NCBI GenBank assembly: GCA_965198175.1
Contig: OZ240245.1
Location: 3,163,030 to 3,227,029, forward strand
DNA length: 64,000 bases
Source: Candidatus Poribacteria bacterium
Lineage (GTDB): Bacteria; Poribacteria; WGA-4E; PCPOR2b
Direction: 5' to 3'
Shown: positions 11,888 through 57,109 of the stretch, piece by piece
Numbering within the stretch: the first letter of the stretch is position 1
Layout: each line of letters begins with the position of its first letter
Position numbers and translations under genes: made by a program
The notes under the pieces: generated by a model
What the model was told of the DNA's origin: nothing
What the model saw: the letters and a program-made list of their open reading frames with translations, nothing else
The model's database searches: none

Positions 11888-12082
11888 TCTCTTGCGCCCC
11901 TGTGCCTCAATAAAAAAGGGGTTCTAGCGAAAAGAATCTCGGTAAAAGTTCCGCAGTTGGACTCTATAAAGAACCGCTTTATCCACATCTTCACTCGCGG
12001 AATTTCGCCTAGTCTACCCCGACACTGACCCTACTTTTGTGGGATCAGGCATTAGTCAAACCACAATCTTGAGTTGAAGCAT

Positions 12083-12601: not shown

Positions 12602-12690
12602 ATATCCAAGAAAGAACCGTTTAATTGGGGGGAAGATAACAATCGACTAGCTTGATTGACGGTGAGTATCGGGATGTATACTATCAAAAT

Positions 12691-13233: not shown

Positions 13234-13515
13234 TATGTGTCTCCTCGTACAACGACATTTAGTAAACACTTTATTATACCCCGAATCTGTAGTGAAAGTT
13301 GCATCATTACAAAGCTATATCGCAGCGAGATTATCGTGGATATTGTGGACGGATATGAATGTGAACCGCTGCGGACACGAGTGAACATCTCACAGGGCTA
13401 TAAGAATTCGCCCTGCACCGCAAAGCCTGGAATGGCATGAACCCCAAACGCCGGTTCAGCGGCGATTTGCATGTGGTGCTTTTTAATCGGCCCACAGGGA
13501 GATCGCCCGTACCGC

Positions 13516-36429: not shown

Positions 36430-36545
36430 AGTAATTCAGCAATACAACCTTGACCCTACATGTGTTAGGGATATACATTTTTTGCAACAGTTGTTCTGCT
36501 TATGCAGTAAGCAATTCGCAATTAAACTACAATAGGAGGAAAAAA

Positions 36546-39364: not shown

Positions 39365-40849
39365 GTGTCACACTTTAGGACGACTTCTCAATCGTTTATC
39401 GTCTCCCTTCTGATTCACCTCTTGATTGCTTTTGTCTTGGGTGTGTTTTTAGTAACTCAGACGCGAACGTTTCGTGATCTCATTGACGCAAGCATTCTGC
39501 GACCAGCTAACCCTCCTAAGCCGAAAATCCGCAAACCGATGATCAAGCCTATCACCAAGCCTACCGTTCCCACTCAATCAATGACTGCTGTCGACCGAGT
39601 GCAACCAACCCCCCGTGTCACAACAGCGGTGACCTTCAGAAGCCCTCGCGTTACCAGTGAGCAGGAAATTGAATTTTCCAATCGCCGCCTACAGCTCGAC
39701 TCACCTCCCAACCCAAACCGACCAAGGATTGTCGACCCCGATCAACCAACTACCAACCTAATCACCCATGTCAATCTCCCCGACTCCGAATCTCCAGGGG
39801 TGTTAGAATCTTCTACGTCTGTTCCGGACGGAGGCGGCAGTGTTTACCGGTTGACCCATCGTGGAATTAGCGGTGCACACCACGACATTCCGATTGGGCA
39901 GAGCCGCCACCGTATGGCATCAGGAATCCAATCCCTACTTGATGCAACTGACGCCGAGCCTTCTGCGCTCAATGCTTTGAACCGCCAGATTCGATTGGGA
40001 AATCAACTAATGGTTCCACTCAAGGCGAACGAATTAGGTGCCCGAATTTACACCGACCCCTGCACTGGTATGCCCACCGGCTATTTTCATATCTGTTATG
40101 TCCGTTTTCGCCAACGAGGCATGAATGAATTTTTTCGCGTTGATCCGACCGCCCTATACTTCTTGGTGAGATGGATGACGCATAGCACGCACATCAAGGG
40201 CAGAATCGCTGGTCGAACGCTTTTTCTTGATGACCCTGGGATCCACGAATCACCCATGCTCTATATGAATGGCACACGGGCAGCGCGCCTGCGCCCTGCA
40301 GAAAAGTGGAACCTCAGACGTTACCTCGTTGAGAAAGGCGGCTTCATCTTTGTTGATGACGACATGGGGGAAGGTAGCGCATCCGTCCGAGCTTTTGCGC
40401 GTTCTCTGCGCGCACAGTTCCGGGAGATAATCCTTCAGGCGGGTGGCAGAGAACTCACGAAGATTCCGAACGATCACCCAATCTGGAATGAACCGTTTAA
40501 GCTCGGTGGGCAACCTGCAAGTCCCAATCCCTATAGCCGACCGACCCTTCCGATGACAGCGTTTGAGTTGAACGGACGTCTCTCCGTTGTCATTAGTTAT
40601 GACGATTATAACAACGGTTGGGAAGCTCCCGGCAGGGGTATGGGCGGGATCGATTTTGTGCCTTCAATCCTACGCATGGGCGCGAATTTTATGCTCTATG
40701 CAGGGACGCATGGTAGGATTAGTGATTACACGCACTATATTCCGCCCGAGAAGTGGAGAAATGAGGATGCCCTGGAACCTGTGCCGACACGAGCGCCTCA
40801 AGCCGCTTCTATTTCAGCCGTAGACCGCCATTTGGATGGTTTCAAGTAA
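39365..40849 (+). CDS. Membrane-anchored Pro-rich protein with a C-terminal DUF4159-like (GATase1-like fold) domain
   Basis: N-terminal TM helix, Pro/Thr-rich linker, C-terminal domain with AEKWNLRRYLVEKGGFIFVDD. Family assignment from memory only. Confidence 0.4.
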   Translation: MSHFRTTSQSFIVSLLIHLLIAFVLGVFLVTQTRTFRDLIDASILRPANPPKPKIRKPMIKPITKPTVPTQSMTAVDRVQPTPRVTTAVTFRSPRVTSEQEIEFSNRRLQLDSPPNPNRPRIVDPDQPTTNLITHVNLPDSESPGVLESSTSVPDGGGSVYRLTHRGISGAHHDIPIGQSRHRMASGIQSLLDATDAEPSALNALNRQIRLGNQLMVPLKANELGARIYTDPCTGMPTGYFHICYVRFRQRGMNEFFRVDPTALYFLVRWMTHSTHIKGRIAGRTLFLDDPGIHESPMLYMNGTRAARLRPAEKWNLRRYLVEKGGFIFVDDDMGEGSASVRAFARSLRAQFREIILQAGGRELTKIPNDHPIWNEPFKLGGQPASPNPYSRPTLPMTAFELNGRLSVVISYDDYNNGWEAPGRGMGGIDFVPSILRMGANFMLYAGTHGRISDYTHYIPPEKWRNEDALEPVPTRAPQAASISAVDRHLDGFK

Positions 40850-41029
40850 CTGCGACGACCTGTAAAACTGCTATAGAATCTCCATCCGCTTCTCTCCATA
40901 TCGCTGCGACATGTAGAGTATTTCATCGCGTTCTGCAGTAAACGCTAATCTAGCTCATCCTTCTTGCTCATGTATTCTTCAGCATCATTTTTCAATTGAA
41001 CCCGCCGGAACGGTAAGAGAAGGCTAAAT

Positions 41030-41757
41030 ATGCGCATTCGTGCGCGATTCATCTGGAACTATGTCGCGATTGTCTTGGTAATATTGCCGGCAATTTCGTA
41101 ATACCTGAATCACGCTCTGAGACAGATGCTAGATGGGCGAATCACCGACGAATTAAGAGTTAAATCGAAATTGACGCGCGAGTTTCTGATTAAGCCCCTG
41201 CCAGATACGCTTGATTACAAGGCAGTAGATGCGCTGATAGACAAACTTGGAGAAGCCACCGAGGCGCGCCTGACCTTTAGCGGGGTTGATGGAACGGTGT
41301 GGGGGGAGACCGAACGGGATGGGAAATCTTAGCGCCAGATGGACAATCGCCGTAATCGTCTAGATGTACAAGACGCCTTGTCCAGTGGAAGTAGCATAGC
41401 CGATCGATACAGCACCACTATTGAAACTTCCCTGCGTTATTACGCACTGCTGGTCTTTCGCCAAAGCGAGGTGATTGGCATCTACCGGGCGGGATAGCCC
41501 ATGCGTGAGGTCAATGCTGCCCTTGCCCGTTTTAATCACGCCGTCGTATTGACAAGCGGCGTTGGACTTGTCGGCGTGATTCTTTTGAGTATCATGGCTG
41601 CGGGACGAACCGCTAAACCCATCCAGGAACTAGTTCAAACCACGAAGGCACTTTCAGAAGGCGATGTCACTGCGCGTGTGCACACTTCTACGTCCGGGGA
41701 GCTCGCACAGTTGTGCCGTCATTTCAATCATGTGGCGCATCGGGTTGAAGCGCAATC
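41030..41757 (+). pseudogene. Sensor histidine kinase (PhoR-like) N-terminal relic: TM1, periplasmic region, TM2 and HAMP only, with three in-frame stop codons
   Basis: Single frame from ATG 41030 reads MRIRARFIWNYVAIVLVILPAIS*YLNH...GKS*RQMDNRR...[65 protein letters not shown]...HVAHRVEAQ. Stops are at 41099, 41330 and 41495. The DHp and catalytic domains are absent. Confidence 0.7.
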
Positions 41758-42230
41758 CGGAAACACAACGGATTCCTGTGGTGATGTTGACAGCGAAAGG
41801 AGAGGAGGCAGATCGGATTGTTGGGCTGGAGTTGGGAGCGGACGATTACATCACCAAACCCTTCAGCCTCAGAGAAGTTGTCCTGCGGGTTCAAGCCATA
41901 CCTAGTCGCATTGCCGGCGATCGAAACGCATCTTCTACCTCAAAACTTCGTGTCAACGGATTGACAATCGATCTGGAAAAACTTCATGGCTTCAGTGAAG
42001 CGGGGTAAATCGATCTGACTTCTACTTAGTTCAAGATGCTGTCGTTATTCGTCGGGGCACCGGGCCGTGTCTTTACCCGTAGTATTTTGATGGAAGTGGT
42101 TTGGGGACAGGAGTACTACGGCGTGGATCGCACGATAGACACGCACATCAGCCGGTTGCGACGCAAATTGGGAGATTTTGGCGATCTCATTGAGACCGTG
42201 CATGGAGTCGGTTATTGGTTCAAAGTGTAG
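41754..42230 (+). pseudogene. OmpR/PhoB-family response regulator C-terminal relic (end of receiver plus winged helix) with two in-frame stops
   Basis: [37 protein letters not shown] ... IDLTST*FKMLSLFVGAPGRVFTRSILMEVVWG...GYWFKV. Stops are TAA at 42006 and TAG at 42027 (where the Glu of TxxEF is expected). Starts out of frame directly at the HAMP end of the kinase relic. Confidence 0.7.
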
Positions 42231-42242
42231 CTCCCGTCACAA

Positions 42243-42923
42243 CTATACTGAATTGTCCTTATGCTTCAAGGCGCCCGGATGCCGAATCACATCGCCTTCA
42301 ACGAGGTAATACACCTCTTCGCCGATATTTGCCGCCAAATCGCCAATCCGCTCCAAATGGCGGAAGAGCAGCAAGGTGCTGATACCAGGGCGGATGAGTT
42401 CAGGTCGCTCAATCATGTAAGTCAACAGTTCGCGCAAGGTCTGGTCGTAGATGGCGTCCACTTGCTCATCTCGTTCCCGAACCTCTTGCGCTAAGACAGC
42501 GTCGCGGTTTACAAAGGCATCAAGCGAGTCTTTCACCATCTCCTGAACAATCCCTGCGACGCGGGGCAGATCGATAAACGGTTTAACGGGTGCATCCTGC
42601 ATCAATTCAAGGCTTCGCTGCGCGATATCGACCGACTTATCCGCCATTCGCTCTAGGTCGCGGTTTATCTTCATCGCCATCGTGAGAAAACGGACATCTG
42701 ACGCTGCGGGCTGATGGAGCGCGATGAGCTGGATGCAGTATTCTTCGATCTCATTCTCAAGTGCATCGGCTTCGTCATCATCGTCAATGACAGCGTGAGC
42801 AAGTTCCACGTCGCGGTTGAGAACGGACTCTACCGCTCGGCGCAGCATATCTTCTGCCAACCCCCCGAGTCGGAGCAGTTTCTGTTGGAGTTCCTTTAAT
42901 TCGAGTTCAAAGTGGCGCTGCAT
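42243..42923 (-). CDS. phoU: Phosphate-specific transport system accessory protein PhoU
   Basis: Two PhoU repeats (...DxxxD acidic motifs). GGAGG ribosome-binding site upstream of MQRHFE. Confidence 0.85.
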   Translation of the reverse strand: MQRHFELELKELQQKLLRLGGLAEDMLRRAVESVLNRDVELAHAVIDDDDEADALENEIEEYCIQLIALHQPAASDVRFLTMAMKINRDLERMADKSVDIAQRSLELMQDAPVKPFIDLPRVAGIVQEMVKDSLDAFVNRDAVLAQEVRERDEQVDAIYDQTLRELLTYMIERPELIRPGISTLLLFRHLERIGDLAANIGEEVYYLVEGDVIRHPGALKHKDNSV

Positions 42924-43070
42924 TGTGGCACCTCCTTTCACTGGATGATTTTAGTATCGCTCATCCCGTCCATCAAGAGATTTCTGGGCTCATTAAGTGA
43001 ATGCGTGGTCGGTAATGCCTACGTGATGAATAGTCATTCAGACCGATTGCCCCCAGAAGTTTATGACCAA

Positions 43071-43850
43071 TTAACCAAACTTGCCTGTGATGTAAGCTTC
43101 CGTCCGAGAATCCCCCGGTTTGGTGAATATTTTTTCCGTAACACCGAACTCAATCAGTTCGCCGAGGTAAAGGAAAGCGGTAAAATCAGAGACGCGCGCC
43201 GCCTGCTGCATGTTGTGCGTGACGATTAGAACTGTATAGTTGTCTTTCAGTTCCAGAATCAGTTCCTCGATTTTACCCGTGGCGATTGGATCGAGAGCTG
43301 AACACGGCTCATCAAGCAACAACACCTCGGGTTCAATCGCCAAAGTCCTGGCGATGCATAGCCGCTGTTGTTGTCCACCGGAAAGTGCGTACGCGTTGTC
43401 TTTGAGCTTGTCCTTTACTTCATTCCAAAGCGCAGCCTTTTTGAGACTCTCTTCAACAATCGTGTCAAGCTCAAGACGGTTGCGGACTCCTGAAATTTTA
43501 GGACCATAAGCCACATTGTCATAGATCGATTTTGGAAACGGGTTCTGCTTCTGAAAGACCATCCCAAGCCGCAAACGCACCTCAACCGGATCGATTGCGG
43601 GAGAATAAAGATCCTCGCCTTCCAAGAGGATCTGTCCCGCCAGCTTAAAAGTGGGGATGAAGTCGTTCATCCGATTGAAGCAGCGGATGAGCGTACTCTT
43701 GCCACATCCGGATGGACCAATCAACGCGGTCACTTTGTAACGTTCAATATCAAACGAAATATCTTTCAGCGCCGGTGTTGTGCTATACCAAGCGTTGACA
43801 TTTTGCACATTCAAGATGGAGTGTACTTTTTCGGCTTGCGAGTCTTTCAT
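43071..43850 (-). CDS. pstB: Phosphate ABC transporter ATP-binding protein PstB
   Basis: [33 protein letters not shown]. Start at MKDSQAEK. Confidence 0.9.
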
Positions 43851-43857
43851 CGTTGCC

Positions 43858-44736
43858 TCACAGGTATTGTTTCTGATAACGGTTGCGCAAAAAGATAGCG
43901 AGCGCATTCAAGAGCAGCGTCACCGCCAACAGGACAACAATTCCTGCTGCGGCGTTAATGTGAAAATCTTTCTGTGGTCGGGAAACCCAATTGAATATCT
44001 GAATGGGTAACGCCGAAAATGAAGAGAGCGGGTCGTCAGGCAGAAACGGGACATAGGTCAGTGCCCCGATTGTAATCAATGGAGCGGTCTCACCAATCGC
44101 ACGGGAAATTGCAAGGATTACGCCGGTGAGAATCCCCGGAAATGCCATGGGCAAGACATGGTGACTTATCGTCTGCCAACGTGAGGCGCCTAATGCGTAT
44201 GCCGCTTCGCGGATGGTATCCGGCACTGACCGAATTGCCTCGCGAGCGGCAATTATGACAATCGGAAGCACCAGTAACACCAATGTTAACGCCCCCGCTA
44301 GAAGGCTCTTATCCAAGCGCATTGCCCTGACAAATAGTCCCAAACCTAAGAGCCCATAGATAATCGAAGGGACCCCTGCTAAATTGGCGACATTCACTTC
44401 AATGATGCGACTGATACGACTTGATTGATTTGTATATTCTTCAAGATAGATTGCGGCGCCCACACCTATCGGGACGCCAATTAACGCGGTTAGGATAATC
44501 AGGTACACACTTCCGACCAACGCCGAGAAAATTCCAGCTTCTGCCGGCTTTCGGGAGGGAAAGCTGGTGAGAAATTCCCAACCGAGTCGTGGAACTCCGT
44601 CGATTAGCGCATCAATGAGCAACGCTCCCAATGTTATAAGCGCAATCAACACGCCGATTGCTGCAACAAGCTGAAAGATTCGATCGTTCCACTTTTGTCG
44701 GTTGAGTAGCGTTTTGAGTTGCGTTCTTGAGGTCAT
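43858..44736 (-). CDS. pstA: Phosphate ABC transporter permease PstA
   Basis: EAAxALGA permease motif ([13 protein letters not shown]). Start overlaps the pstC stop (ATGA). Confidence 0.85.
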
Positions 44737-45644
44737 TCGTACCTTTCCCTAAAGCGCTGGCGCATCCGGTCGGCGAAGATGTTGAGTACAAAAGTTGAAA
44801 GAAACAGAACCATACCCACCGCAAAAATCGTTCGGTATTCAAGCGTGCCGCTCGGCGTGTCACCCAAACTGACCTGAACGATGTAGGTAGTTATCGTCTC
44901 AATGGCGACCAACGGGTTAAACGTGAGATTGGCTTTCTGGCCCGCTGCGATTGAAACCAACATCGTCTCACCGATGGCGCGCGAAACTGCGATAACAAAA
45001 GATGCCGTGATACCGGAGAACGCTGCTGGTACAACTACCCGCCAAGCTACCTGAAGACGCGAAGACCCCAACGCATAGGCTGCATCTCGCAAACTCCGTG
45101 GCACGGCAAACATCGCATCCTCGCTTAACGACGAGACCAGCGGTAAGATCATGATGCCCATTACAATGCCGGGCGAAAGCGCGTTAAACCCTTCAAGAGA
45201 AGGAATAAAACGCTGCAAAAGCGGCGTGACAAATAGCAGGGCAAAGTAGCCATAGACAATTGTGGGAACGCCAGCCAATATCTCCAAGATGGGTTTCAAC
45301 ACGCGCCGCAGCCTATCTGGCGCGTATTCGCTCAGGAAGATTGCTGTCAATATTCCTAGTGGCACCGCCATGAGCATGGCGATTAGCGACGTTAAGACAG
45401 TCCCTGACAGGAGCGGAAGCACTCCGAACCGTTTGTTGACGGAGAGCGGTGCCCACTCTGTGCCGGTTAGAAAATCGAAGACCGAAACCTCCTCGAAAAA
45501 GGCGATTGTCTCGAACAAGAGCACGCCGATGATGCCAACGGTCGTTAAAATTGAGAGCAGTCCACAAGCCAAAAGGCTCCGTTCAATGATTCGTTCAATG
45601 ATTTGCTCGATGATTCGAGATAGCTTTTTCTGCTTGGTTTTCAT
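44733..45644 (-). CDS. pstC: Phosphate ABC transporter permease PstC
   Basis: EAAxALG motif ([13 protein letters not shown]). Confidence 0.85.
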
Positions 45645-45666
45645 AGGAATCGGTCATCGCAATTGA

Positions 45667-45696
45667 GGGGTTCGATGAAAAATCGAAAGGAACCCC
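45667..45696 (-). promoter_or_regulatory. Intercistronic stem-loop between pstS and pstC (GGGGTTC ... GAACCCC, 7-bp stem, loop with an internal CGAT..ATCG palindrome)
   Basis: Perfect 7-bp inverted repeat in the 85-nt pstS-pstC spacer. Confidence 0.45.
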
Positions 45697-45729
45697 ATCG
45701 TTGTTCGACCACGAAATACTGAGAGTCCC

Positions 45730-46737
45730 TTAATTCATGTCACCGCGGAGCACGTCATCAATCGAGACACCCGTTGTCGAGCCTTTACCGCCGAAGACTG
45801 AACCGGTGACGCGGTTTTGGAAACGCTGCCGGATGAGTTGGTATGTCTCGTCCGGCAGCGGAATGTAGTCAACTTCCTCCGTCAATGTTTTCGCGTGCTT
45901 TAGATAGAACTCAACAAATCTCTCAACCTCAGGACGATCAGCGGACTGCTTGCTTACGTAAATGAAAATTGGCCTTGAGAGCGGCTGATAGGTCGCATTC
46001 TTGACCGTTTCAAGTGAGGGTACGATTGGGCCGTCGCCGTTGTCCGATTTTTCATCATCAATCGGTACGAGCTTCAGAATATCCCGATTCGCTTCGTAGT
46101 AGGCGAGTCCAAAGACCCCGAGCGCGTACCGGTCATAGGCGACCGCCTGCACAAGCACATTGTCATCTTCGCTAACGACAAAATCGCCGCGACTCGCTCC
46201 CTCTTCGCCACAGACGGCTTTCGTAAAGTAGTCATAGGAGCCAGAATCCGCCCCCGGACCAGCCAGTGAGATCTTCTTTTTGGGCCACTCAGGTCGAATC
46301 TGATTCCAATACATGATTTGTCCCTGTGACTCCGGCTCCCAAAGCTTTTTGAGTTCCGCAACGGTCAAGTAATCCACCCAATCATTTTTCGGGTTGATTG
46401 TAACCGCCAATCCGTCGAATGCCACCGGCAGTTCAATGTATTCGATGCCGTTCTTCTTGCACAATTCCACCTCGGTCGGTTTGATAGGACGCGACGCATT
46501 GGTCACGTCGGTTTCGCCCCGCCCGAATTGCTTAAACCCGCCGCCGGTTCCGGAAATACCAACAGTAACTCTGAGTTTGCGGTTTTCTTTCTGGAATTCT
46601 TCAGCCACCGCTTCGGTGATAGGGAAGACGGTGCTAGAACCATCCACTTCAATCAAATAGGAATCGTCGCCACAACCGCTGAAAAACACGCTCGACAGGA
46701 GCGCAAGTATGCCGATCCATCTGAATCGATAATACAT
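45730..46737 (-). CDS. pstS: Phosphate-binding lipoprotein PstS
   Basis: Start at [22 protein letters not shown] (lipobox) with a GAGAGGTGAG ribosome-binding site. PBP-like body ([10 protein letters not shown]). Confidence 0.85.
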
Positions 46738-46862
46738 GATAAACCACTCACCTCTCTTCCATCGGTCGAAACCGCAGAACACGATCTTTACACTAAGAAT
46801 ACTTAGGAGGCTCGCACCTCCCTGAAAATGGGTTTGCATAACACCTCCACTTCATGGACGTT

Positions 46863-46898
46863 GTAAGTGTAACACTCAGATGTTACAAATTTATGACA
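46863..46898 (-). promoter_or_regulatory. Pho-box-like direct repeats upstream of pstS (minus strand: TGTCATA-aatt-TGTAACA-tctgag-TGTTACA)
   Basis: 7-bp repeats with 4-bp spacing resemble the PhoB-binding Pho box (CTGTCATA-4-CTGTCAC), about 130-160 nt upstream of the pstS start. Confidence 0.4.
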
Positions 46899-47094
46899 TT
46901 TCTGCGACTTTGTGAAGAAAATTTTACTCTAGGGGACGGTGGATTATGCGCTACCCCGGTTCCTTCGGAACGTCCTCTCGCCCGCATGGGCGGCGATTGG
47001 GTTGTCATTCTCCAACTTTCGTTGTGGCTAGACTGTTGAGCAAAGGACATCTCAAACCGTAAGAGCGTCTTAAACCTAATGGGGGTTGCGTTGG

Positions 47095-47895
47095 CTAGCT
47101 CATGGATGTTCCACCATCGACATGGATGCTCTGACCGGTGATGTTCCGCGCCTCCTCCGATGCCAAGAACGCCACCAGGTTGCCGATATCCTCCGGCGTC
47201 TGCTCTCGCTGAAGAGGAGTGTTCTGTTTCACCCAAAGGTCGAACACCTGACGCGGCTCAAGGTCAGTGTAATCGGAATTGTCTCGCGCGACGAGCGGGG
47301 CGAGTTTCCGCCAGAACGCGGTCCAGACCAAGCCCGGACAGACCGCATTCACATTGATATTGTGGGGACCGAGATCCTTGGCTACCAATCGTGTCAGGTT
47401 CAAAAGGGCGTTTTTCGCTGCCGCATAGGCTGGCAAAACTTGTGGGTCTCGCTTTGCCGCGATGGAGGAGATGTTGATTATCTTCCCATACTTTCGTTCC
47501 ATCATATGCGGTGCAACGGCTTTGCAGAGGAAAAACGGACCTTTGACGTTGACGGCATAGTTGTCGTCCCAGTCCGCCTCGGTCTGGTTCGTGAAGGGCA
47601 GCCCTAACTGCTCGCCGAAATGTCCGGCGTTATTCACAAGGATGTCCAGGTTCCCGAACGCATTCCGCGCCTCATTCACTAAATCTTTGCAGTCATCCTC
47701 ACTCGTCACATCTGACCGAACCGCAAGTCCGCGCCGACCCGTGTCCTCTATCATTTCGACACAACGCCTCGCGGCGTCCAAGTTTATGTCCGACACAACT
47801 ATATCCGCACCTTCTCGTGCGAGGCACGCGCATATACCGCGCCCCATCCCGCCGCCACCACCGGTAACAACGGCAATTCTACCTTCTAAGCGCAT
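47095..47895 (-). CDS. SDR-family oxidoreductase (3-oxoacyl-ACP reductase-like)
   Basis: TGGGGGMG Rossmann motif, NNAG, catalytic YxxxK (YAAAK). AAGGAG ribosome-binding site before MRLEG. Confidence 0.8.
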   Translation of the reverse strand: MRLEGRIAVVTGGGGGMGRGICACLAREGADIVVSDINLDAARRCVEMIEDTGRRGLAVRSDVTSEDDCKDLVNEARNAFGNLDILVNNAGHFGEQLGLPFTNQTEADWDDNYAVNVKGPFFLCKAVAPHMMERKYGKIINISSIAAKRDPQVLPAYAAAKNALLNLTRLVAKDLGPHNINVNAVCPGLVWTAFWRKLAPLVARDNSDYTDLEPRQVFDLWVKQNTPLQREQTPEDIGNLVAFLASEEARNITGQSIHVDGGTSMS

Positions 47896-48056
47896 GTGAG
47901 GCTCCTTTCGAGAAGTTAGATGGACTAGCAATGCCCCGCACAGACAGCACGCAAAGAAACCGAGTTTTTCAAAAAAACTCGGTTTCTTCCGATTACCCCT
48001 CACTGTCGTTGAAAAAAATTACTATAGTTTCCATGATATATTTACGTTTTGACGGT

Positions 48057-48974
48057 TCAATTGAAATTACGGTCCCCATCCGATTCAACGTCAAAATCAT
48101 CGCCATTCTTTAAAAGCGCTCGAGTTCTGTCGTGGAACTCTCGATCATTATCATTTGAGATGTAATCACCGCATATTCTACGGAAGACAGCGTTCTCTAT
48201 AATGCTGTCAATGTAACCATAGTCAAGCTTGGTTCGCCGCTGAATTTCCGTTGGATCCACACCGTTTTTGTACATACCGAGTACCTCGTGCTCGACGCGT
48301 TGACGCAACATCCATTCTTTCAACTCATCTTCAGTGACGCCGGTCTCCGCAGTTATTTCATCGAAGCTTTTGCCTCGGCGCAGCATACCGTGCGCTTCGA
48401 CTTCGGCTGCTGTTTTGTTTATCACTTCTATTGCGTTTTCAATGATCTCAGATTCTGATTCTGGTGACTGCGATTCAACCAATTGCGCTTCCGCTACCGT
48501 GTCCTCGTCATGGTTGTCTTGCACGACTGCTGGGAGAGGCGGTTTGATGTTCTTGACGGCTTGATTCAGCGTTAGCAACGCTTTGGGAACGAGCGAGATT
48601 TGTTCTTTTGGGCTAAGGGATGAAATTGTAGATTCCAGATTGTCAAATGCGGCGTTCAACGCAGTCACAGACTTGGATTCGAGTTGCCGGAGGTGCTTTT
48701 CTCGTGCCGTAGCATAATTAGCCTGCATTAGCCTATATTGCTTAGCCCACTTTTCGGCGTTGTATCGGCTGTCGTTCGGGTTGACGGTGCAGATGGCTTC
48801 TTTCGCCAATCGACGGTCGGCTTTTGGATCGCCTGTAGATCGCTCCGGATATCGCTCGACAAGCGCGTCAGCGACTTCGGTTGTGCCATAGTCCTGCGCA
48901 AACATGGCGAGCCATTCAGCGAGTTCGGATTGAGTCTGGTGGTACGGGTTTTTGTAACTTCGTTTTTGTGTCAT
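48057..48974 (-). CDS. Hypothetical acidic protein (305 aa) with two HTH-like segments in the C-terminal third; divergent from dndC
   Basis: ORF only. Segments KSFDEITAETGVTEDELKEWM and VDPTEIQRRTKLDYGYIDSII look like helix-turn-helix motifs. Confidence 0.35.
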   Translation of the reverse strand: MTQKRSYKNPYHQTQSELAEWLAMFAQDYGTTEVADALVERYPERSTGDPKADRRLAKEAICTVNPNDSRYNAEKWAKQYRLMQANYATAREKHLRQLESKSVTALNAAFDNLESTISSLSPKEQISLVPKALLTLNQAVKNIKPPLPAVVQDNHDEDTVAEAQLVESQSPESESEIIENAIEVINKTAAEVEAHGMLRRGKSFDEITAETGVTEDELKEWMLRQRVEHEVLGMYKNGVDPTEIQRRTKLDYGYIDSIIENAVFRRICGDYISNDNDREFHDRTRALLKNGDDFDVESDGDRNFN

Positions 48975-49353
48975 TTTATCCTCTCTGGTGATTTAGATGG
49001 AACGTCTAGGTGATTTGTCCTTTCGACGGTTACAATAATCCTACGTTTTTCGTGTATATTATACCACATCTGAGCTGTATCATGCAGGCGTTTTATATCA
49101 ACTAATATTTAGGTATTTGAACACCGAAAGCCTCCTGGTTCAGCAGTTCATCGCCGGATAGCGTAACACCTCAATGAATCGGGTAACTAATACTTGTGCT
49201 GAGCGCATTAAAACTTTGAATGGAGATTTTCAAGCGCGTTTTGAAAAAAAAGGGGGTTGAAAGCCGTTTGAATGAATCTTTATTGAACTCGCTCTGATTT
49301 TTTGCTATACTTAAAACAACTTCAATACGAATCAACACCAAGGAGATTATCCA

Positions 49354-50775
49354 ATGGCTAAGGAGACCGATGAAAAAGCGTATTCCATTTTTAATAATCG
49401 TACCGTTGCAGACATTCATCAAGGAATCCAGGAGGTTTATCTCTCCGATTCACGTCCATGGGTAGTGGGCTATAGCGGCGGAAAGGACTCAACGACGGCG
49501 CTTCAACTGATATGGTATGCCCTCGAAGAACTTCCGCCTGAACAACGGCAAAAACCAGTTTACGTCATCACGTCCGACACGCTGGTGGAAACCCCTGTGA
49601 TTGTGGATTACATTACGAGCACCTTGGATCGAATTGAACAGGCTGCCCGAAAATCAGGGATGCCGTTTCAAACGCACATTGTCACACCGAAAACGGACGA
49701 GACGTTTTGGGTGAACCTCATCGGCAAGGGGTATGGGGCTCCGTACTCGAAATTTCGTTGGTGCACCGATCGGATGAAGATTCAGCCAGCGAATCGATTC
49801 ATACTTGAGAAAGTGGCTGACTATGGCGAAGTCGTTCTAATTCTCGGTGTTCGCAAAGGGGAGAGCACAACACGAGATCAGGTGTTGAGTTTGCATCAAA
49901 TCAAGGGGTCCCAACTTTCGCGCCATACGTCACTACCCAACGCTTTTGTGTACACGCCAATCGTCGACTTTGGTCTCAACGATGTGTGGATTTACCTGTT
50001 TCAAGTCCCCTCGCCATGGGAAAATGACAACAAGGAGTTATTTGCGCTGTATCGTAATGCAAACGCAGGGGAATGTCCGTTAGTCGTTGACGAGACGACG
50101 CCTTCTTGCGGCAATAGCCGATTCGGGTGCTGGACGTGTACCGTTGTCTCGAAAGACAGGTCAATGGAAGCGATGATTGACAACGGCGAGGATTGGATGA
50201 TGCCGTTACTCGAATTTCGGGACTTTCTCGCCTCAACGCAGGAACCGGAAAACAAGGCTAAAATTCGGGAACATCGCCGTCGTGGCGGATTTGTTAGTGA
50301 ACGAAATGGGCAGTTGGTTCGTGGACCCTATAAATTGGAGTTTTGTAAAGAACTGCTACGAAGACTTCTAGAAACACAACAGCAGGTTCGTCAGGAAGGT
50401 CCCGATCCAAACATTGAGTTAATCACTCCACCAGAGCTTGAAGAGATTCGTAGAATCTGGCGGACCGAGCGTCAAGATTGGGAGGATTGTGTACCACAGA
50501 TTTATCGAGAGGTTGTGGGCGAAAAACTCGACTGGATTGAGGATGACCTTGGGACATTCACAGCGTCCGATAAAGCGATTTTAGAAGAGCTATGTATCGA
50601 CTCGGAAATTCCTGTTACGCTCGTTGCGAAGTTACTCGACACGGAGAGGCAATTCTACGGAATGAGTCGTCGGGCGGCAATATATGACCGAATCAATGCG
50701 GTTTTTCACGAAGATTGGCGATCTGAAGGAACTGTGCTTGCCGACCTTGAAAAGGACGTGGAGAATATGAACTGA
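49354..50775 (+). CDS. dndC: DndC-like DNA-phosphorothioation PAPS-reductase-family sulfurtransferase
   Basis: YSGGKDST PP-loop, FRWCTDRMKIQP, LGVRKGESTTRD, Cys cluster CGNSRFGCWTCT. Stop overlaps the dndD start (ATGA). Confidence 0.75.
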   Translation: MAKETDEKAYSIFNNRTVADIHQGIQEVYLSDSRPWVVGYSGGKDSTTALQLIWYALEELPPEQRQKPVYVITSDTLVETPVIVDYITSTLDRIEQAARKSGMPFQTHIVTPKTDETFWVNLIGKGYGAPYSKFRWCTDRMKIQPANRFILEKVADYGEVVLILGVRKGESTTRDQVLSLHQIKGSQLSRHTSLPNAFVYTPIVDFGLNDVWIYLFQVPSPWENDNKELFALYRNANAGECPLVVDETTPSCGNSRFGCWTCTVVSKDRSMEAMIDNGEDWMMPLLEFRDFLASTQEPENKAKIREHRRRGGFVSERNGQLVRGPYKLEFCKELLRRLLETQQQVRQEGPDPNIELITPPELEEIRRIWRTERQDWEDCVPQIYREVVGEKLDWIEDDLGTFTASDKAILEELCIDSEIPVTLVAKLLDTERQFYGMSRRAAIYDRINAVFHEDWRSEGTVLADLEKDVENMN

Positions 50776-51008
50776 TGATCCTCCACCGACTCACACTCAA
50801 AGATTTTGGACTCTTTTCTGGGGAGCAGACGTTTTGTCTGACTCCGCGAATCAGATACAAGAAGCGGCGTCCTGTCATCCTCATTGGAGGCAAAAGCGGG
50901 ACAGGCAAGACAACTATACTTGAAGCTGTACGTCTCTGTTTGTACGGTCCCCGATCGTTGGGCAACCGTCAATGGGTAACCAATCCTATTCAACTGTCAC
51001 CTAATTAG
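50775..51008 (+). pseudogene. dndD: 5' stub (77 codons) of dndD (SMC-like ABC ATPase); homology ends after the Walker A region
   Basis: MILHRLTLKDFGLFSGEQTF...VILIGGKSGTGKTTILEAVRLCLYGPRSLGNR matches the DndD N-terminus, then diverges and stops 20 nt before the convergent HNH gene. Confidence 0.7.
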
Positions 51009-51028
51009 GATAGTTTTGTGTAATTAAG

Positions 51029-51946
51029 TCATTCTCGAAAAACATTTCCGCGATGCCACGCCATGGCGTCCTGCGCAGGATAAAACTTAGCTTGGTCAGG
51101 CAACTGTATTCTTTTTTTTCGGAGTTCGATGAGTACCCACTCTGACGCATGTTGGTCGTATAATTCCGGTGAAACCTTGACTCTATAAGTCTTGCTCAAC
51201 GAGATTAGTCCTCTGTCAAATGCCCAATGATGCAGCTTGCACAACGAAATCCCGTTCCGTACATCGTTATTTTGAAAGGCATGATACGGGATGATGTGGG
51301 CGGCATCGGTTGCGCTCTCTCCGTCTGTAGTGACGATACACAACTCGCAGACAGCACAAGTATAGTTGTACAGTTGCATGATTGCGCGACGGAAACCCGC
51401 TTGACGAATGCGAATTATCCTTTGGACTAGTGTCGCTGGTTGTTCCGCTACCAAAGGAAGTTTGGTCCTAGTGAATAGTGAATAGGTATATTTCCAAGTC
51501 TCCTGATTCTCCGCAATGAGATTTACCAATTCTTCCTCGAAGTCTGGAAAATAGGTTTGGATAAGCGTTTGGCGTAGCACCTCTCGACTGGCTGGATCGA
51601 CCAACAAAACAAAGAGTTCGTCATCAAGCGTCGAATGGGATACAAGTTTACGTAGACGAGATATGCTTGTGATCCGACGTGCGCTACTCAATTCCCTTTC
51701 ATACCCTGCGTTTGCATGGAGGTGCCAAAATCCAGTACTCTTTTTACCTTTTAAGTGAAAAAACGGCATAGCGATGTTAGGTTGCCGTTCGGTCACTATT
51801 GGCCAATACTTGAGGAAAGTTGCCGCTAATTCAGCACACAAGCGAATTTTGTTTTCGGAAAACTGTCCACTATCTATCAACTCTATGATCGACAAGAGAA
51901 GGACCTGCTGATGTGGTGCGGGACCATGCGCCATGTCTACATTCAA
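51029..51946 (-). CDS. HNH endonuclease-family protein (HNH_2-like) with an N-terminal domain of unknown function
   Basis: C-terminal CAVCEL...AAHIIPY...NGISLCKLHHWAFDRGLIS HNH motif. Confidence 0.65.
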   Translation of the reverse strand: MNVDMAHGPAPHQQVLLLSIIELIDSGQFSENKIRLCAELAATFLKYWPIVTERQPNIAMPFFHLKGKKSTGFWHLHANAGYERELSSARRITSISRLRKLVSHSTLDDELFVLLVDPASREVLRQTLIQTYFPDFEEELVNLIAENQETWKYTYSLFTRTKLPLVAEQPATLVQRIIRIRQAGFRRAIMQLYNYTCAVCELCIVTTDGESATDAAHIIPYHAFQNNDVRNGISLCKLHHWAFDRGLISLSKTYRVKVSPELYDQHASEWVLIELRKKRIQLPDQAKFYPAQDAMAWHRGNVFRE

Positions 51947-51976
51947 GTGACTGAATTTGTGGATATATTTTCTTAA

Positions 51977-53051
51977 GCTTAGGAGTTACGCAGTTGAGAG
52001 CAAATAGGTTATAATTTGAGCATGAATCCATCGAAATATAATGACATTGACTATATCAATTTCTTGGTTGGCACTCAGAAAAGTTACAGTTGTCTTGAGG
52101 CAGAAAAGGTTCAACCCCAAACTGATGACTCACCGGCTCATGATTCGATAACCAGACTTTTGCATCGAGATGAACCCGATACCGGCAAACTGTGGCACGA
52201 ATCAAAAAGTCAGGTGAAATTGAAATCAGGAATTCTAGTTATAGATGATTCGACCCTTAGATGAAGGATCGATCCTTCATCTGATAAACCTTATTCCCAA
52301 AAGATTGACCTAGTGACAAAACACTGGTCGGGGAAACACCATCGAGTTGTGCATGGCATTAACCTAATCACTTTGCTTTGGACGAATGGCGATAGACATA
52401 TTCCATGTGATTATCGAATCTATAACAAAGCCAAGGACGGCTTGACGAAAAATGACCATTTCCGTGCAATGCTGACGGAAGCGAAGAACCGTGGCTTTGT
52501 TCCCGAATGTCTTTGCTTTGATAGTTGGTATGCTAGCCTAGAGAATCTAAAAGCCGTCCGAGATTATGGTTGGAGATGGCTGACTCGTCTAGCTGCCAAC
52601 CGACGGGTCAGTAAAGATTATTCCGGTAATCGTCCTGTAAGTACAGTGCCGATTGAATCAACGGGTACGATTGTTCATCTTAAGGGTTATGGATTGATTT
52701 TGGTATTCAAGGTGGACACTCCAGAAGGTGACATTGAATATTGGGCAACGAACGACTTACACATGAACGAGTTAACACGTCTCAAATATACGGAATGGTC
52801 TTGGGCAATAGAAGAATATCATCGTGGCATTAAGCAATTCGTTGGCGTCGAACGGGCACAAGTGCGGTCGACTCGCACTCAAAGCAATCATATCGGTTTA
52901 GCGCTGAGAGCCTTTCTGAGAATTGAGCATTACTGTTATCATACCGGCACCAGTTGGTTTGAAGCAAAACTCTCAATTGTCAGAAAGGCTGTCCGTGATT
53001 ATTTGGTGCAGCCTCTTTTTACGCTTGAGTCAACTGCGTAACTCCTAAAGC
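51977..53051 (+). mobile_element. IS element (about 1.07 kb) with 17-bp perfect terminal inverted repeats TAGGAGTTACGCAGTTG. Its IS4/IS701-superfamily DDE transposase is interrupted by an in-frame TGA inside a 24-bp palindrome.
   Basis: Left inverted repeat at 51980-51996 and right inverted repeat (reverse complement) at 53031-53047. The transposase reads in a single frame from 52022 to 53041 except for TGA at 52262-52264. Confidence 0.7.
52259..52282. repeat. 24-bp perfect palindrome AGATGAAGGATC|GATCCTTCATCT lying in frame inside the transposase gene
   Basis: Exact reverse-complement symmetry. Removing it deletes 8 codons (R*RIDPSS) and leaves ...DDSTL-DKPYSQKIDLV... contiguous. Confidence 0.8.
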
Positions 53052-53655
53052 TATTGGTGGACATATTATCTTTATGAATCTCTGGTTATAAATCAAATAG
53101 TAGCACACCGATCGAATCGAGAAAGGGTAAACATGGCAAATTCTTTTCTAAACATAAACAAAAGAAAGGTGATTGACCAAGTGATGTCACAGACGGTGGA
53201 ATTCTCAGAACTTCATCGCTTTAACTTATCGCATTCATAAAGTAATTCGCTGGACAGGTGTTTTGGTTGCATTGTATCCTGCGAGATGAAGCTAGGTGAT
53301 TGTCAACGATTCATCTCGGCTTCCTCCAGTCGTGTGAGGTGACTAACCGCCTCACGGGACGTATTGATTGCCATAATTAGGACGTGAATCCCTGTGCCTG
53401 AGGCAACCCAGTTTCACTGTTCAGGAACTGGATTGTCGATTCTCTCACCTAGTCTTAACACTCCTAACCAAATTGAGTATCCCAATGAACCAGCGTCTGG
53501 ACAAAAGGGCGCAGGTGTTTTATTGCCTGCTTTTGTCGCTCAATCTAACAAAGGAGTGTTCACCAATGTTTATCGAATTTCCTCAGCCCGACAAGCTCAT
53601 CAACATTGACATCATCGACCGAATTGAAATCCAAACTGTTCGGTAGCGTGGAGAG

Positions 53656-53856
53656 ATGAATCACAAACTGTTGCTTTATCGCAATCATAGCTACTCGGTC
53701 GGCACTCCAAGCAGCAGCAAAAATTTCAATGGCGAAATCTGGCGATTCGTGCTGATGAAGCCACAAAACAAAGAGCAAATCTATGAGGTGTGGAATACTC
53801 TCATCGAAAACCTCGGCGAAGAAGTCGTTACCATCAATACCCCGCTTCTGGGGTAA
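53656..53856 (+). CDS. Small hypothetical ORF (66 aa) in a cassette-like cluster
   Basis: ORF with GGAGAG 3 nt before the ATG. Upstream mini-ORF at 53567 has a strong AAGGAG ribosome-binding site. Confidence 0.25.
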   Translation: MNHKLLLYRNHSYSVGTPSSSKNFNGEIWRFVLMKPQNKEQIYEVWNTLIENLGEEVVTINTPLLG

Positions 53857-53914
53857 AATCTAAGGGAGCGGCTCACGCCGTCCCCACTACTTTACAAGGA
53901 GATTTACAACGTCT

Positions 53915-54100
53915 ATGAAACTGATTATCGAGGAGCGACTCCAAGCTGTTGAAGTTGAAGTGAAGAACCTCAAAACTCACTTGGAAGCATTGCCACCCAC
54001 GCATGACGTTTCCGTTGATAATGTGCATGGTATAGTTACTGATATGGTTAATAGTATATTCGATCACGCACGAGCAATCGAACGCGGTCGTACTATATGA
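53915..54100 (+). CDS. Small hypothetical ORF (61 aa), preceded by a GC stem-loop and the CTACTTTACAAGGAGATT leader
   Basis: Leader motif at 53887-53904 and stem-loop at 53864-53885. Confidence 0.35.
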   Translation: MKLIIEERLQAVEVEVKNLKTHLEALPPTHDVSVDNVHGIVTDMVNSIFDHARAIERGRTI

Positions 54101-54174
54101 TATAACCCAGAAATGGATTAACATCTATGGACGGGGCGACTAGCTCCGCCCCCCTACTCTACAAGGAGATTGTT

Positions 54175-54417
54175 TTGATAGATACTACCACTCAGGAGGA
54201 ACTCAGATGTAAGAAGTTGATTATCGTTGGCAATAATGGCGAAGAAGTTATCTTGCGTGTTGCTACGGAGCCTGCCGTACGCGATTCACTTGATAACCAT
54301 GTGATAAGAGAGGCAATTACGCGCATTCGATTTGAAGACCACAATGGCAAAATTCAGGATATCGCATCCGTCCCTGAAGGTCAAGTCGAACTCGCATTAA
54401 GTAATCCTGTTAGCTAG
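54175..54417 (+). CDS. Small hypothetical ORF (about 80 aa from TTG 54175; ORF track gives ATG 54127), preceded by a GC stem-loop and the CTACTCTACAAGGAGATT leader
   Basis: Leader motif at 54154-54171 and stem-loop GGGGCG..CGCCCC at 54133-54152. Confidence 0.35.
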   Translation: MIDTTTQEELRCKKLIIVGNNGEEVILRVATEPAVRDSLDNHVIREAITRIRFEDHNGKIQDIASVPEGQVELALSNPVS

Positions 54418-54652
54418 ATAGGAACAGCATAAATTTGCCCATCAACTATCACAATTGACGATGGCGGTAAAGCCTTCAGCAAGTCATTATAATGGGACCC
54501 AAGTGTGCTAATTGGGTGTCCGATTGGCACACTACCTTCCTTCAACATGGGCGGCGTGTTTTTCACCAAATTACTTATAAATCGTTCTGAACCTATTTGT
54601 TTTTCGCTTTTAGTTTCCATAACTTTCACGTCACATCACACGGAGATATGTA

Positions 54653-54856
54653 ATGCTAACCAATTCTGACCTAATAAGCCAAATCGAAAGTAAGGTTATT
54701 ACATTAGAATCACTTCTTTCTGAGATTAGAGAAAACTTAGGCTGCCCTGAGTTTTTCAACAATCGAGAGGTACAATTAAAGTTGTTATTAGATAGCGTCC
54801 ATGTCAATCTTAATCAATGGTTCCGTGATAGAGATCGCCCACCCGTTTCGGATTAA
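54653..54856 (+). CDS. Small hypothetical ORF (67 aa)
   Basis: ORF with GGAG ribosome-binding site. Its 3' end overlaps the IS3 remnant. Confidence 0.25.
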   Translation: MLTNSDLISQIESKVITLESLLSEIRENLGCPEFFNNREVQLKLLLDSVHVNLNQWFRDRDRPPVSD

Positions 54857-55309
54857 CAATATGTTCTTGAGAGCGAAGCCATGCAGTCAACCGAGGCACC
54901 CCATAGAACGGCGTCTTAGTGTACTGTTCGTCTACTAGACGCATATAGAGTAAATTTTGTTGCGATTCTACTACAGGTCGGTAATAGAACGAAGACCTAG
55001 ACAACCCCAATAGTTGACATTGTCTCGACACCGACGGTGAACGACAGCCCGGTTCAACAAGTTGCCGCTTCGGTTCAACGGAGCCGTTGAGTTTTTTTTG
55101 AAGCCAGTCGAGCTCTACCTTCAACTGACCGATTTGGCGATAGAGTTCAGCGACTAGCTGTTCGTTGTCGGAATCTGCTTTTGAACGTCCGTTTGCAAAG
55201 AGTTGAGGTAATGCTTCAAGCACTTGCTTTTTCCATTGACTGACTTGATTCGGGTGGATTCCATATTCACTGGCAATGTGTTGAGCCCGTGAAATTCTTG
55301 GTTTGCCAT
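54810..55309 (-). mobile_element. IS3-family transposase remnant: OrfA with a 1-nt frameshift near the start, plus the first 60 codons of OrfB; DDE core absent
   Basis: KPRISRAQHIASEYGIHPNQVSQWKKQVLEALPQLF (OrfA HTH and leucine zipper) runs straight into LSVSRQCQLLGLSRSSFYYRP...YGVPRLTAWLRSQ (OrfB N-terminus). Confidence 0.65.
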
Positions 55310-55510
55310 GCTAACTTCCGGAAGTCCGTAGGTTGGGTTGAGAGTGTAAAATAAATGCCTAGCTAAGGCAAATGAGAGCGTCGCTAGTCACCGATGCTGT
55401 TGCCGCGCATAAAGATAGACCCAAACCCAACACCCAATCTACGTGTTAATCATCATGCGTGGGTATCACTACAGACTTGGGAGACCCAATTTGAATTGAA
55501 TCCCGAAGTC

Positions 55511-57109
55511 CTAGCGTAATGCTTCGTGTTTTTCATCAGCGTTAATCTGGAAGCGTTCTAACAGAAAATCGCGTACTCCTTGCAGTGAGGAGTTGGTTAA
55601 AATTCCATCCGGTATGATGACCGCTGCACTTCCAATGCCGGGCTTGAGGAAAGCCCAGATGCGCTCAATAAAAAGGATCTCAGTCCGTTGGTTCTTGCGA
55701 GGTTTGTTGTTCCCTGCTTTATTCATCTGATTGCCCAATTCATAATCCTCAAGATAGGGATGTTCAGATAACGACACTTTTGCGCCGAAAGGCGGGTTGG
55801 TCAAAATCAGGTCGATGGCGCCTTCTTTAAACTCATTGTTGCCGGTCCTTTCACGAATGCGGTCAAATTGTTGCAGTGCGTCCGCGCTGATGACGTTGGT
55901 GTGACCGTCGTCGTGGAGAATCATGTTCATTTTAGCGACACGAGCAATCTCTTCATTGACCTCAATTCCGAAAAGCATCGCTTTAGCGAAATCGTGCCAG
56001 TGCTTAAAACGGTCTACAGGATCGTCGTGATAATCGTTCGCCTCTTCACGCACATAGTCAAGCGCATGGAGTAGGAAACCACCAGAACCACAGGCTGGAT
56101 CTAGTACGCGTTCATGGTTTTGGGGCCGCATCATTTGGACCATGAAATCAATAATTTCCCGCGGGGTGAAATACTGACCGAAGTGGCCCTTGAAAAAGCC
56201 GTCCATAAACGTTTCAAATGCTACTCCTTTTGTATCAAGATCAGTCTTAGAGAGGTTAATGCTTTCGATATGGGAGACAATGGTGCGGAGCGTTGCGGCG
56301 TCAATCTTGATGGTATCAGTGAAAACATCAGGTTCTCTCCGCTGCTGCACCTCATAGATTGACCGGATGCGCTCCGCGAGTTTGCTACTCGGCTCGTGTG
56401 TTTTGATTTGGAATTCGTAAGGTTCTCCATTTCTACGGTTTGCCTGCTCATCGTTGATTTTGACAAAGATAATTTTACATAGTTCGCCGAAAGCCTCTGG
56501 GGGCGAGAGTTTGCCGCCTCCCCAAAGGGTCTGATGGCATTTCTTAATCGTAGAAATGAGCATTTCTTTGGAGACAGCCGAAATATCGTCTTGAGTTCCT
56601 TTCCGAAAACGGAATTCCTCTGGCTTGCCATACCGTCGCGGAAGGTCTGCAACGATATTTGCTTCACGTTCGAGAACCCCGTATCTCGGAGAGAAATCGA
56701 GAAATCGCCGTGTCTGACCTGCGACGACCCCAACAAAATTTGCGCGGAACTTTGCCCATGTTCCGTTGCCACAAGCTTGCTCAACTGCTTGATTAAATTC
56801 TGAATCGGTGATGTCATCCTGCTTGAACTCAATCACCGCGTAGGGCTGAGTCCGTTTGTCATCGTGAAAAATGACTAAATCGGCGGCGTCTCTTGGGGTG
56901 CGGTCAGGTACGGTTACTTCAACCCCAATACGGTTCGGTTCATAGCCGTAGCGGTAGACTAGTTCTGCCCAATATTCAGCTCTAACTTTCTCTTCAGGGT
57001 CAGCATATCGTTCTTTGTGGTCAATTGCAACATAGGTAATCTTTTCAGCTTTCCCCTCTCCTGAAAGGTAAGCATCTTCATTTTTTAGTGCATTTTCTAT
57101 GTAGGTCAT
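55511..57109 (-). CDS. N6-adenine DNA methyltransferase with an N-terminal HsdR_N-type PD-(D/E)xK domain (type I/IIG-like); no cognate S or R subunit nearby
   Basis: DLVIFHDD...AVIEFK nuclease-like motif, FxGxG motif-I (LDPACGSGGFLL), NPPF motif-IV (LTNPPFG). Confidence 0.75.
   Translation of the reverse strand: MTYIENALKNEDAYLSGEGKAEKITYVAIDHKERYADPEEKVRAEYWAELVYRYGYEPNRIGVEVTVPDRTPRDAADLVIFHDDKRTQPYAVIEFKQDDITDSEFNQAVEQACGNGTWAKFRANFVGVVAGQTRRFLDFSPRYGVLEREANIVADLPRRYGKPEEFRFRKGTQDDISAVSKEMLISTIKKCHQTLWGGGKLSPPEAFGELCKIIFVKINDEQANRRNGEPYEFQIKTHEPSSKLAERIRSIYEVQQRREPDVFTDTIKIDAATLRTIVSHIESINLSKTDLDTKGVAFETFMDGFFKGHFGQYFTPREIIDFMVQMMRPQNHERVLDPACGSGGFLLHALDYVREEANDYHDDPVDRFKHWHDFAKAMLFGIEVNEEIARVAKMNMILHDDGHTNVISADALQQFDRIRERTGNNEFKEGAIDLILTNPPFGAKVSLSEHPYLEDYELGNQMNKAGNNKPRKNQRTEILFIERIWAFLKPGIGSAAVIIPDGILTNSSLQGVRDFLLERFQINADEKHEALR

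Follow-up and report, generated by a model that had tools for sequence, protein, structure and literature searches.

Loss of the two-component pair that governs the response to phosphate starvation is known from the marine picocyanobacteria, in which SphS and SphR correspond to PhoR and PhoB. Prochlorococcus CCMP1375 has no regulator gene sphR, nor have Synechococcus CC9311 and CC9902, and MIT9313 has a frame-shifted sphS (Su et al. 2007, BMC Genomics 8:156, PMC1906773). Such strains keep the genes of the pst transporter; their Pho boxes may persist for a while, as at pstCAB of CCMP1375, or degrade later, and the loss has been ascribed to the availability of phosphate in the niche (PMC1906773). 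Here we describe a relic of a Pho-type kinase-regulator pair that occupies positions 41030-42230 of a 64,000-nt stretch of contig OZ240245.1 from a Candidatus Poribacteria bacterium (this whole stretch is called the window below). The relic lies beside an intact and convergent phoU-pstBACS operon.

Like the picocyanobacterial strains, in which the sensor or the regulator is missing or broken, the Poribacteria strains that carry the relic have kept pst. Unlike them, they are sponge-associated, one repeat-mediated deletion appears to have fused both genes, the relic is still polymorphic with nonsense alleles reshuffled by recombination, and three independent losses are found in one clade. The Poribacteria case joins the known pattern of Pho loss in another phylum, adding to it a deletion mechanism, polymorphic nonsense alleles and the three losses. 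We found no literature on the loss of a Pho system in Poribacteria. The locus is very probably a young, non-functional pseudogene relic, shaped by one deletion, by neutral drift and by stop codons that recombination has assembled on one allele. No new mechanism is revealed by it. Its interest is rather that of a well-resolved snapshot of the loss of a regulatory system, in which a repeat-mediated deletion was followed by neutral nonsense polymorphisms shuffled by recombination, and in which sister lineages have lost the same sensor pair in parallel while the target transporter operon stays under strong selection.

The relic and its intact orthologues

The relic consists of two parts that meet at a short junction:

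41030..41755, plus strand: kinase relic with a first transmembrane segment (TM1), a periplasmic sCache-like region, a second transmembrane segment (TM2) and HAMP; codons 1-242 of an ancestral kinase of ~593 amino acids
41744..41755, plus strand: deletion junction, the one surviving copy of the 12-nt direct repeat GTTGAAGCGCAA
41751..42230, plus strand: regulator relic that begins in the last third of the receiver and continues through linker and winged-helix DNA-binding domain; equivalent to ancestral residues ~68-228

An earlier note on this DNA, made from the sequence and its open reading frames (ORFs), had described a sensor-kinase N-terminus with TM1, periplasmic region, TM2 and HAMP, abutting out of frame the C-terminal half of an OmpR/PhoB-type regulator, with three stops in the first part, two in the second and no indel in either. 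All of this was borne out by translation and by domain searches. Read from ATG 41030, the kinase frame gives two hydrophobic segments with ~140 residues between them and then HAMP, and it is interrupted by the in-frame stops TAA 41099, TAG 41330 and TAG 41495. The Pfam model of HAMP matches residues 191-240 of the read-through translation (1.2e-11), and the match to sCache_like is weak. The regulator frame begins at 41751, out of frame with the kinase part, and holds the C-terminal 160 codons of a regulator of the OmpR/PhoB type; it is interrupted by TAA 42006 and TAG 42027 before it reaches its natural stop at 42228-42230. The read-through translation of this part matches Trans_reg_C in Pfam (1.2e-23) and Response_reg partially (2.5e-8, limited to model positions 69-110 of 111), and its best match in NCBIfam is PhoB TIGR02154. 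Both parts align without gaps, over 723 nt and 465 nt respectively, to the intact locus of the relative L003.

HisKA and HATPase_c are missing from the window copy, which ends on the kinase side with HAMP. The receiver is incomplete as well, the Asp-bearing segment (LDLMLPEVDG in L003) being within the 1,377 bp that were deleted. Since PAS, DHp, CA and the phospho-acceptor Asp are all missing, signalling is impossible, and judging from these missing domains the relic should yield no functional product.

When species-representative genomes were scanned with the protein of the adjacent DUF4159 gene, the lineage was placed in Candidatus Poribacteria, which are sponge symbionts, and three closed chromosomes proved to share the gene order. 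In all genomes examined the order is the DUF4159 gene, the kinase, the regulator and then the convergent phoU-pstBACS. A collection of 5.8 billion proteins contains just two homologues of the kinase fragment, both of them at syntenic loci. The locus is intact in L003, which encodes a kinase of 593 amino acids (11670-13451) and a regulator of 228, and in L005, where the kinase has 592 amino acids and the regulator ~228. The kinases of both carry a transmembrane segment, a Cache-like domain, HAMP, PAS, HisKA and HATPase_c. Full-length orthologues are the norm across Poribacteria, several of them labelled PhoR by JGI.

The L003 kinase scores 401.2 against the NCBIfam model PnpS, just passing the cut-off of 400, and 303.1 against phoR_proteo, below the cut-off of 334.2. 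The best match of the L003 regulator is again PhoB TIGR02154, at 250.8 and below the cut-off of 296.2. Given the NCBIfam matches, the linkage to phoU-pst and the Pho-box-like site, the label 'Pho-type' seems fair for the pair, with the regulator falling below its equivalog cut-off. As in the PhoR/PhoB, PnpS/PnpR and PhoR/PhoP-type systems, the intact pair adjoins phoU-pstBACS and a 7-4-7 Pho-box-like repeat precedes pstS. Unlike PhoR of E. coli, the Poribacteria kinase has a periplasmic Cache-like domain plus HAMP. The identification of the region as a Pho-type kinase-regulator relic, first made from the window itself, is backed by these syntenic orthologues and by the domain matches. A metagenome scan with the relic peptide returned relatives of at most 34% identity over the kinase regions and one 46% match confined to the out-of-frame tail, and it yielded no further relic alleles. 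Exact-sequence look-ups of the PhoU, DUF4159 and AccA ORFs of the window gave no match, probably owing to the start codons chosen or to an incomplete index.

A deletion between direct repeats and parallel losses

Deletion between short direct repeats is a standard route of bacterial gene loss. L003 retains two perfect copies of GTTGAAGCGCAA, one at 12384 at the end of HAMP and one at 13761 in the receiver domain, 1,377 bp apart. When the two loci are aligned, the window lacks exactly the DNA between these copies. The proposal that a single deletion had removed the DHp and CA domains of the kinase together with the phospho-acceptor half of the regulator is confirmed by this alignment, in which the relic appears as the product of one 1,377-bp deletion between 12-nt direct repeats. 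The mechanism was probably slipped-strand or illegitimate recombination. Where the locus is intact, kinase and regulator are read in different frames, and therefore the join is out of frame. Compared with ordinary repeat-mediated deletions nothing about this one is unusual; its 1,377 bp span two genes, which it joined out of frame. All seven known relic alleles (7/7) have the same junction. In the allele L023 (P0127) the deletion is present and Leu is found at all three of the positions that are stops in the kinase part of the window; therefore the deletion preceded the stops at 41099, 41330 and 41495.

Two sister lineages have lost the pair by other lesions. L002 (10001-12583) retains a full-length locus, with an insertion of 1 nt in the kinase, an insertion of 2 nt in the regulator and no stop. 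After correction of the frame its proteins look normal, and the loss is therefore very recent. L004 (11583-11975) shows a deletion of ~2.2 kb between 8-nt CCGGCAAT repeats, which joins kinase codons 1-22 to the last ~105 codons of the regulator; the remnant carries two stops (AAG>TAG and GAA>TAA) and a W>K change. As is typical of deletions between short direct repeats, those of the window lineage (12 nt) and of L004 (8 nt) are both bounded by exact repeats that the nearest intact relative still has, and each has left one copy at the junction. On this evidence L002 and L004 lost the pair independently of the window lineage, which makes three losses in one clade. This indicates that in several Poribacteria populations the canonical Pho pair has ceased to report phosphate starvation, which bears on the handling of phosphorus inside the sponge host.

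The history of the window lineage was very probably as follows. As in intact Poribacteria genomes today, the ancestor had a kinase like PnpS/PhoR and a regulator like PhoB, placed after the DUF4159 gene and facing phoU-pstBACS. The 1,377-bp deletion took out PAS, DHp and CA along with the phospho-acceptor portion of the receiver, killing both genes at once. Like the GAG>TAG change at 42027 it is fixed in the sampled population, and the relic then drifted neutrally. Four more nonsense substitutions arose on different haplotypes, where they still segregate, and homologous recombination among strains brought all the stops together in the window allele. The relic itself would be without activity, pst-phoU presumably being expressed without this regulator. 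The recurrent loss of the pair in Poribacteria would fit relaxed selection on the sensing of phosphate starvation in a sponge-associated niche.

Nonsense alleles and the mode of decay

Seven relic alleles were compared, namely those of the window, L001, L023, L024, L025, L026 and L027; further ones came from a 90% cluster of the relic ORF, two members of which are exactly the ORF fragments of the window itself. The stops and the tract that combined them are these:

41099..41101, plus strand: stop 1, TAA, from Leu TTA by T>A; in the window, L001, L024, L025 and L026; TTA in L023 and L003
41330..41332, plus strand: stop 2, TAG, from Leu TTG by T>A; in the window, L025 and L026 only; TTG in L023 and L024, CTG in L001
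41495..41497, plus strand: stop 3, TAG, from Leu TTG by T>A; in the window, L024, L025 and L026; TTG in L001, L023 and L027
42006..42008, plus strand: stop 4, TAA, from Leu TTA by T>A; in the window, L001 and L023 only; TTA in L024, L025, L026 and L027
42027..42029, plus strand: stop 5, TAG, from Glu GAG by G>T; in 7/7 alleles, the sole fixed stop; GAG or GAA in L003, L002 and L005
41930..42242, plus strand: recombinant tract of L001/L023 type in an L025-type allele, carrying stop 4 into the window allele

At the five sites, in this order, the codons of the intact relatives are Leu TTA/CTA, Leu TTG, Leu TTG/CTG, Leu TTA and Glu GAG/GAA. The stop at 42027 replaces the conserved Glu of the wing motif, as had been noted earlier; it is the Glu of LTSTEFKML in intact relatives. 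The number of stops per allele rises from two in L023 through three in L001 and L024 and four in L025 and L026 to five in the window. Stops 1-4 are polymorphic and fail the four-gamete test: the sites 41495 and 42006 occur in all four combinations, and recombination is therefore indicated. The window differs from L025 at only 2 positions in 900 nt over 41030-41929 and then at 8 in 313 nt over 41930-42242. Against L001 the pattern is reversed, with 33 differences in 900 nt over the first interval and 2 in 313 nt over the second. The window allele thus has five stops because a tract of L001/L023 type with the stop at 42006 recombined into a four-stop allele of L025 type. For annotation, it should be noted that the 64-amino-acid 'Trans_reg_C' and the 68-291-amino-acid 'HAMP' ORFs called in these genomes are pseudogene fragments.

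The coding variable sites among the seven alleles, counted after reassignment of the T/C site at 41330, number 64, of which 43 are non-synonymous, 17 synonymous and 4 nonsense. The fractions expected from the inferred ancestor and the empirical mutation spectrum are 0.68, 0.28 and 0.035, respectively. The ratio of non-synonymous to synonymous changes (N:S) is 2.5 among the alleles, against 2.4 expected, and the 4 nonsense sites compare with ~2.2 expected (Poisson P ~0.2 by our own arithmetic). The kinase part shows a pN/pS (non-synonymous over synonymous differences per site) of 1.2 between the window and L001. N:S amounts to 36:47 on the stem branch and to 25:37 on the intact L003 branch. The two ratios are similar, and therefore most of the stem was under selection and the inactivation came late. 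An intact syntenic orthologue, disabling lesions (the deletion and five nonsense codons) and a neutral substitution pattern are all found at this locus, as in a unitary pseudogene.

The earlier note had regarded five nonsense codons without any frameshift as an odd spectrum of decay, to be explained either by very recent inactivation or by something other than neutral decay. Recent inactivation agrees with the N:S of the stem. Non-neutral decay finds no such agreement, given that the stops segregate and that N:S is neutral. Most of the oddity is accounted for by a young, neutrally drifting and recombining pseudogene, with the TTR>TAR pattern of the stops left over as a quirk. The relic differs between the window and L001 at 3.6% of sites, a value between that of the synonymous sites of the upstream genes (~1%, pooled) and that of the pst genes (~4.4%). 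Divergence faster than neutral, by hypermutation of the relic, was also considered and rejected, the 3.6% being explained by mosaic haplotype ancestry.

Several observations sit less comfortably with neutral decay. Small indels are few in the relic, at 1 per ~65 variable sites (the sole one is a 1-nt insertion after 41904 in L027), against 0.05-0.09 events per substitution in the intergenic spacers, a rate at which a few would be expected, although the difference is not striking. Four of the five stops arose from Leu by TTR>TAR, a route that holds ~12% of the stop-creating mutational mass; the nominal probability of this excess is ~1e-3 by our own arithmetic, in a test made post hoc. In the window lineage alone, ~32 neutral substitutions (estimated from N:S) would be expected to give ~1.1 stops where 5 are found, an estimate with the wide error of 0-58 neutral substitutions on the stem. 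All seven nonsense changes across the lineages, five in the window and two in L004, are transversions. The points on the stops would favour a decay in which nonsense was itself selected, or in which a T>A mutational process at T[T]R is frequent in this lineage. In the selective variant the stops would end the production of a truncated fragment of the membrane sensor, or would act by polarity against transcription into the convergent phoU. Of the T>A-type changes in the relic, 5/14 lie in the T[T]R context, against 12% of A/T sites, and this lean, in small numbers, could partly explain the Leu-to-stop pattern. We nevertheless consider non-neutral decay quite unlikely. The 4 nonsense sites among 64 are not significantly above the expected 3.5%, and after the deletion and the first stop any further stop in a dead gene could not be individually selected. 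Silencing was evidently not required in L023, whose relic is without any kinase stop, and L002 has decayed without stops. The samples are small, moreover, and the pattern was noticed after the fact.

Two other explanations deserve discussion beside neutral decay. The relic could retain a residual function, either through the 64-codon ORF at 42036-42230, acting on the Pho box as a constitutive PhoB-like factor without receiver, or through the N-terminal membrane fragment of the kinase. No allele interrupts the 64-codon ORF, which gene calling has picked up with a match to Trans_reg_C and in which the window and L001 differ at a single site, and the Pho box is kept and identical in most strains with the relic. 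However, the variable sites of this tail ORF are 5 non-synonymous to 1 synonymous, which rejects constraint on the winged helix. The ORF starts inside helix 1, downstream of two stops, and does not include the beta-sheet with which the effector domain begins at its N-terminus; the Arg of GYRF, conserved in the wing, is Trp in this lineage; and no Shine-Dalgarno-like sequence precedes ATG 42036. The corresponding tail of L004 has a stop and the W>K change, and in the kinase part the pN/pS of 1.2 speaks against a preserved membrane fragment. What is left is an incomplete effector domain outside purifying selection, unlike a stand-alone winged-helix regulator, and a residual function seems highly improbable. 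Finally, the view that stops and junction are artefacts of sequencing or assembly, or that the stops are read through by recoding or suppression, is almost certainly wrong. Each of the stops, like the junction, is found again in assemblies of different samples (ERZ25072076, ERZ25067264, ERZ25072670, Logan ERR13602196 and JGI 3300042672); they are therefore not sequencing or assembly errors, and all the changes are substitutions rather than homopolymer indels. Recoding was rejected because four of the five stops alternate with Leu codons in near-identical strains and because neighbouring genes end normally at TAA or TAG; furthermore, the catalytic and phospho-acceptor domains are physically absent. 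The window contains no tRNA or suppressor gene, and no Rfam match was found across 40500-47300.

The pst-phoU operon, its Pho box and the flanks

The transporter operon that faces the relic, and the conserved block before it, have the following parts:

42243..42923, minus strand: phoU, intact and convergent with the relic; Pfam PhoU 3.8e-50; protein 100% identical to that of L001; pN/pS 0
43071-43850, minus strand: pstB, intact, full-length Pfam match
43858-44736, minus strand: pstA, intact, full-length Pfam match
44733-45644, minus strand: pstC, intact, full-length Pfam match
45730-46839, minus strand: pstS, intact, full-length Pfam match; true start probably Met34 at 46740
46864..46906, minus strand: conserved 43-nt block upstream of pstS with Pho-box-like repeats, core 46882-46899

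The full-length domain matches of all five genes agree with the earlier description of the operon as intact. Between the window and L001 the pN/pS values of phoU, pstB, pstA, pstC and pstS are 0.00-0.11; the transporter and PhoU are therefore kept under strong purifying selection. The Pho-box-like repeats are retained too, as had been claimed: the minus-strand site ATGTCATAAATTTGTAAC at 46882-46899 departs from the E. coli consensus at 3 positions. In the window there are 2 Pho-box-like matches, against 0.21 expected by chance. A sigma-70-like match that overlaps the Pho box is weak. The block is conserved in the window, L003, L002, L005, L023, L024 and L025, and it is identical in the window, L023 and L025. 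Within the 64-kb window, tblastn searches for the intact kinase and regulator turned up no second copy of either.

In L001, which carries the same relic, a precise deletion of 43 nt at ~15700-15740 removes exactly the Pho-box block (46864-46906 in the window). This loss may be a second step in the rewiring of pst control after the loss of the regulator. A further-reaching picture, which we regard as unlikely though within reach, holds that the four independent TTR>TAR events in a relic of 1.2 kb reflect a context-specific process of preferentially stop-creating transversions in these Poribacteria and, separately, that the Pho box, perfectly conserved in strains without the cognate regulator, is used by another regulator, with the excision in L001 as the second step of rewiring.

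Some further features of this region may be mentioned. In L004 an extra repeat-containing insert lies between the Pho box and pstS. Translation of pstS from Met34 (46740) is probably to be favoured over the ATG at 46839, a lipoprotein signal peptide following Met34. The leader of pstS, ~100 nt long, contains a hairpin at 46805-46822 with a T-rich tail, which is conserved across divergent genomes; support for covariation in this hairpin is weak (term ~0), and it has no Rfam match.

The comparison of the window with L001 is mosaic over 42930-45650, and especially over 45126-45625: synonymous divergence of the pst genes is 1.6-8.7%, against ~1% upstream. Divergence is concentrated within pstC, where 45580-45591 is a 12-nt indel that keeps the frame. 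Over the whole of 42930-45650 hardly any difference separates the window from L025. This indicates that the relic-pst region exists in two deep haplotype classes.

On the other side of the relic lies one further element:

40850..41029, plus strand: spacer from the DUF4159 gene to the ATG of the kinase, which presumably once served the two-component operon as promoter and leader

These 180 nt have no variable site among the alleles, against 4.7% in the adjoining relic, and they differ from L003 by 21 substitutions and 2 indels. The invariance may mean either that the spacer is part of an upstream haplotype block of low diversity or that it contains an element under constraint, for instance a terminator of the DUF4159 gene.

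Farther upstream, a DDE_Tnp_1 insertion sequence lies between two genes for F5/8 type C domain proteins in L025 (circular, 5.09 Mb) at 1258-2277 and is absent from the window, where the corresponding position is 36430-36545. The synteny between the window and L001 ends at ~47.9-48.5 kb, and the right flank of the window, at 48000-57200, resembles a mobile or defence island with the following genes:

49354-50775: Dnd-like PAPS-reductase protein
51029-51946: HNH endonuclease
52016-53041: split DDE transposase
54810-55223: IS-type HTH_21 fragment
55511-57109: N6-adenine methylase with an HsdR-N domain

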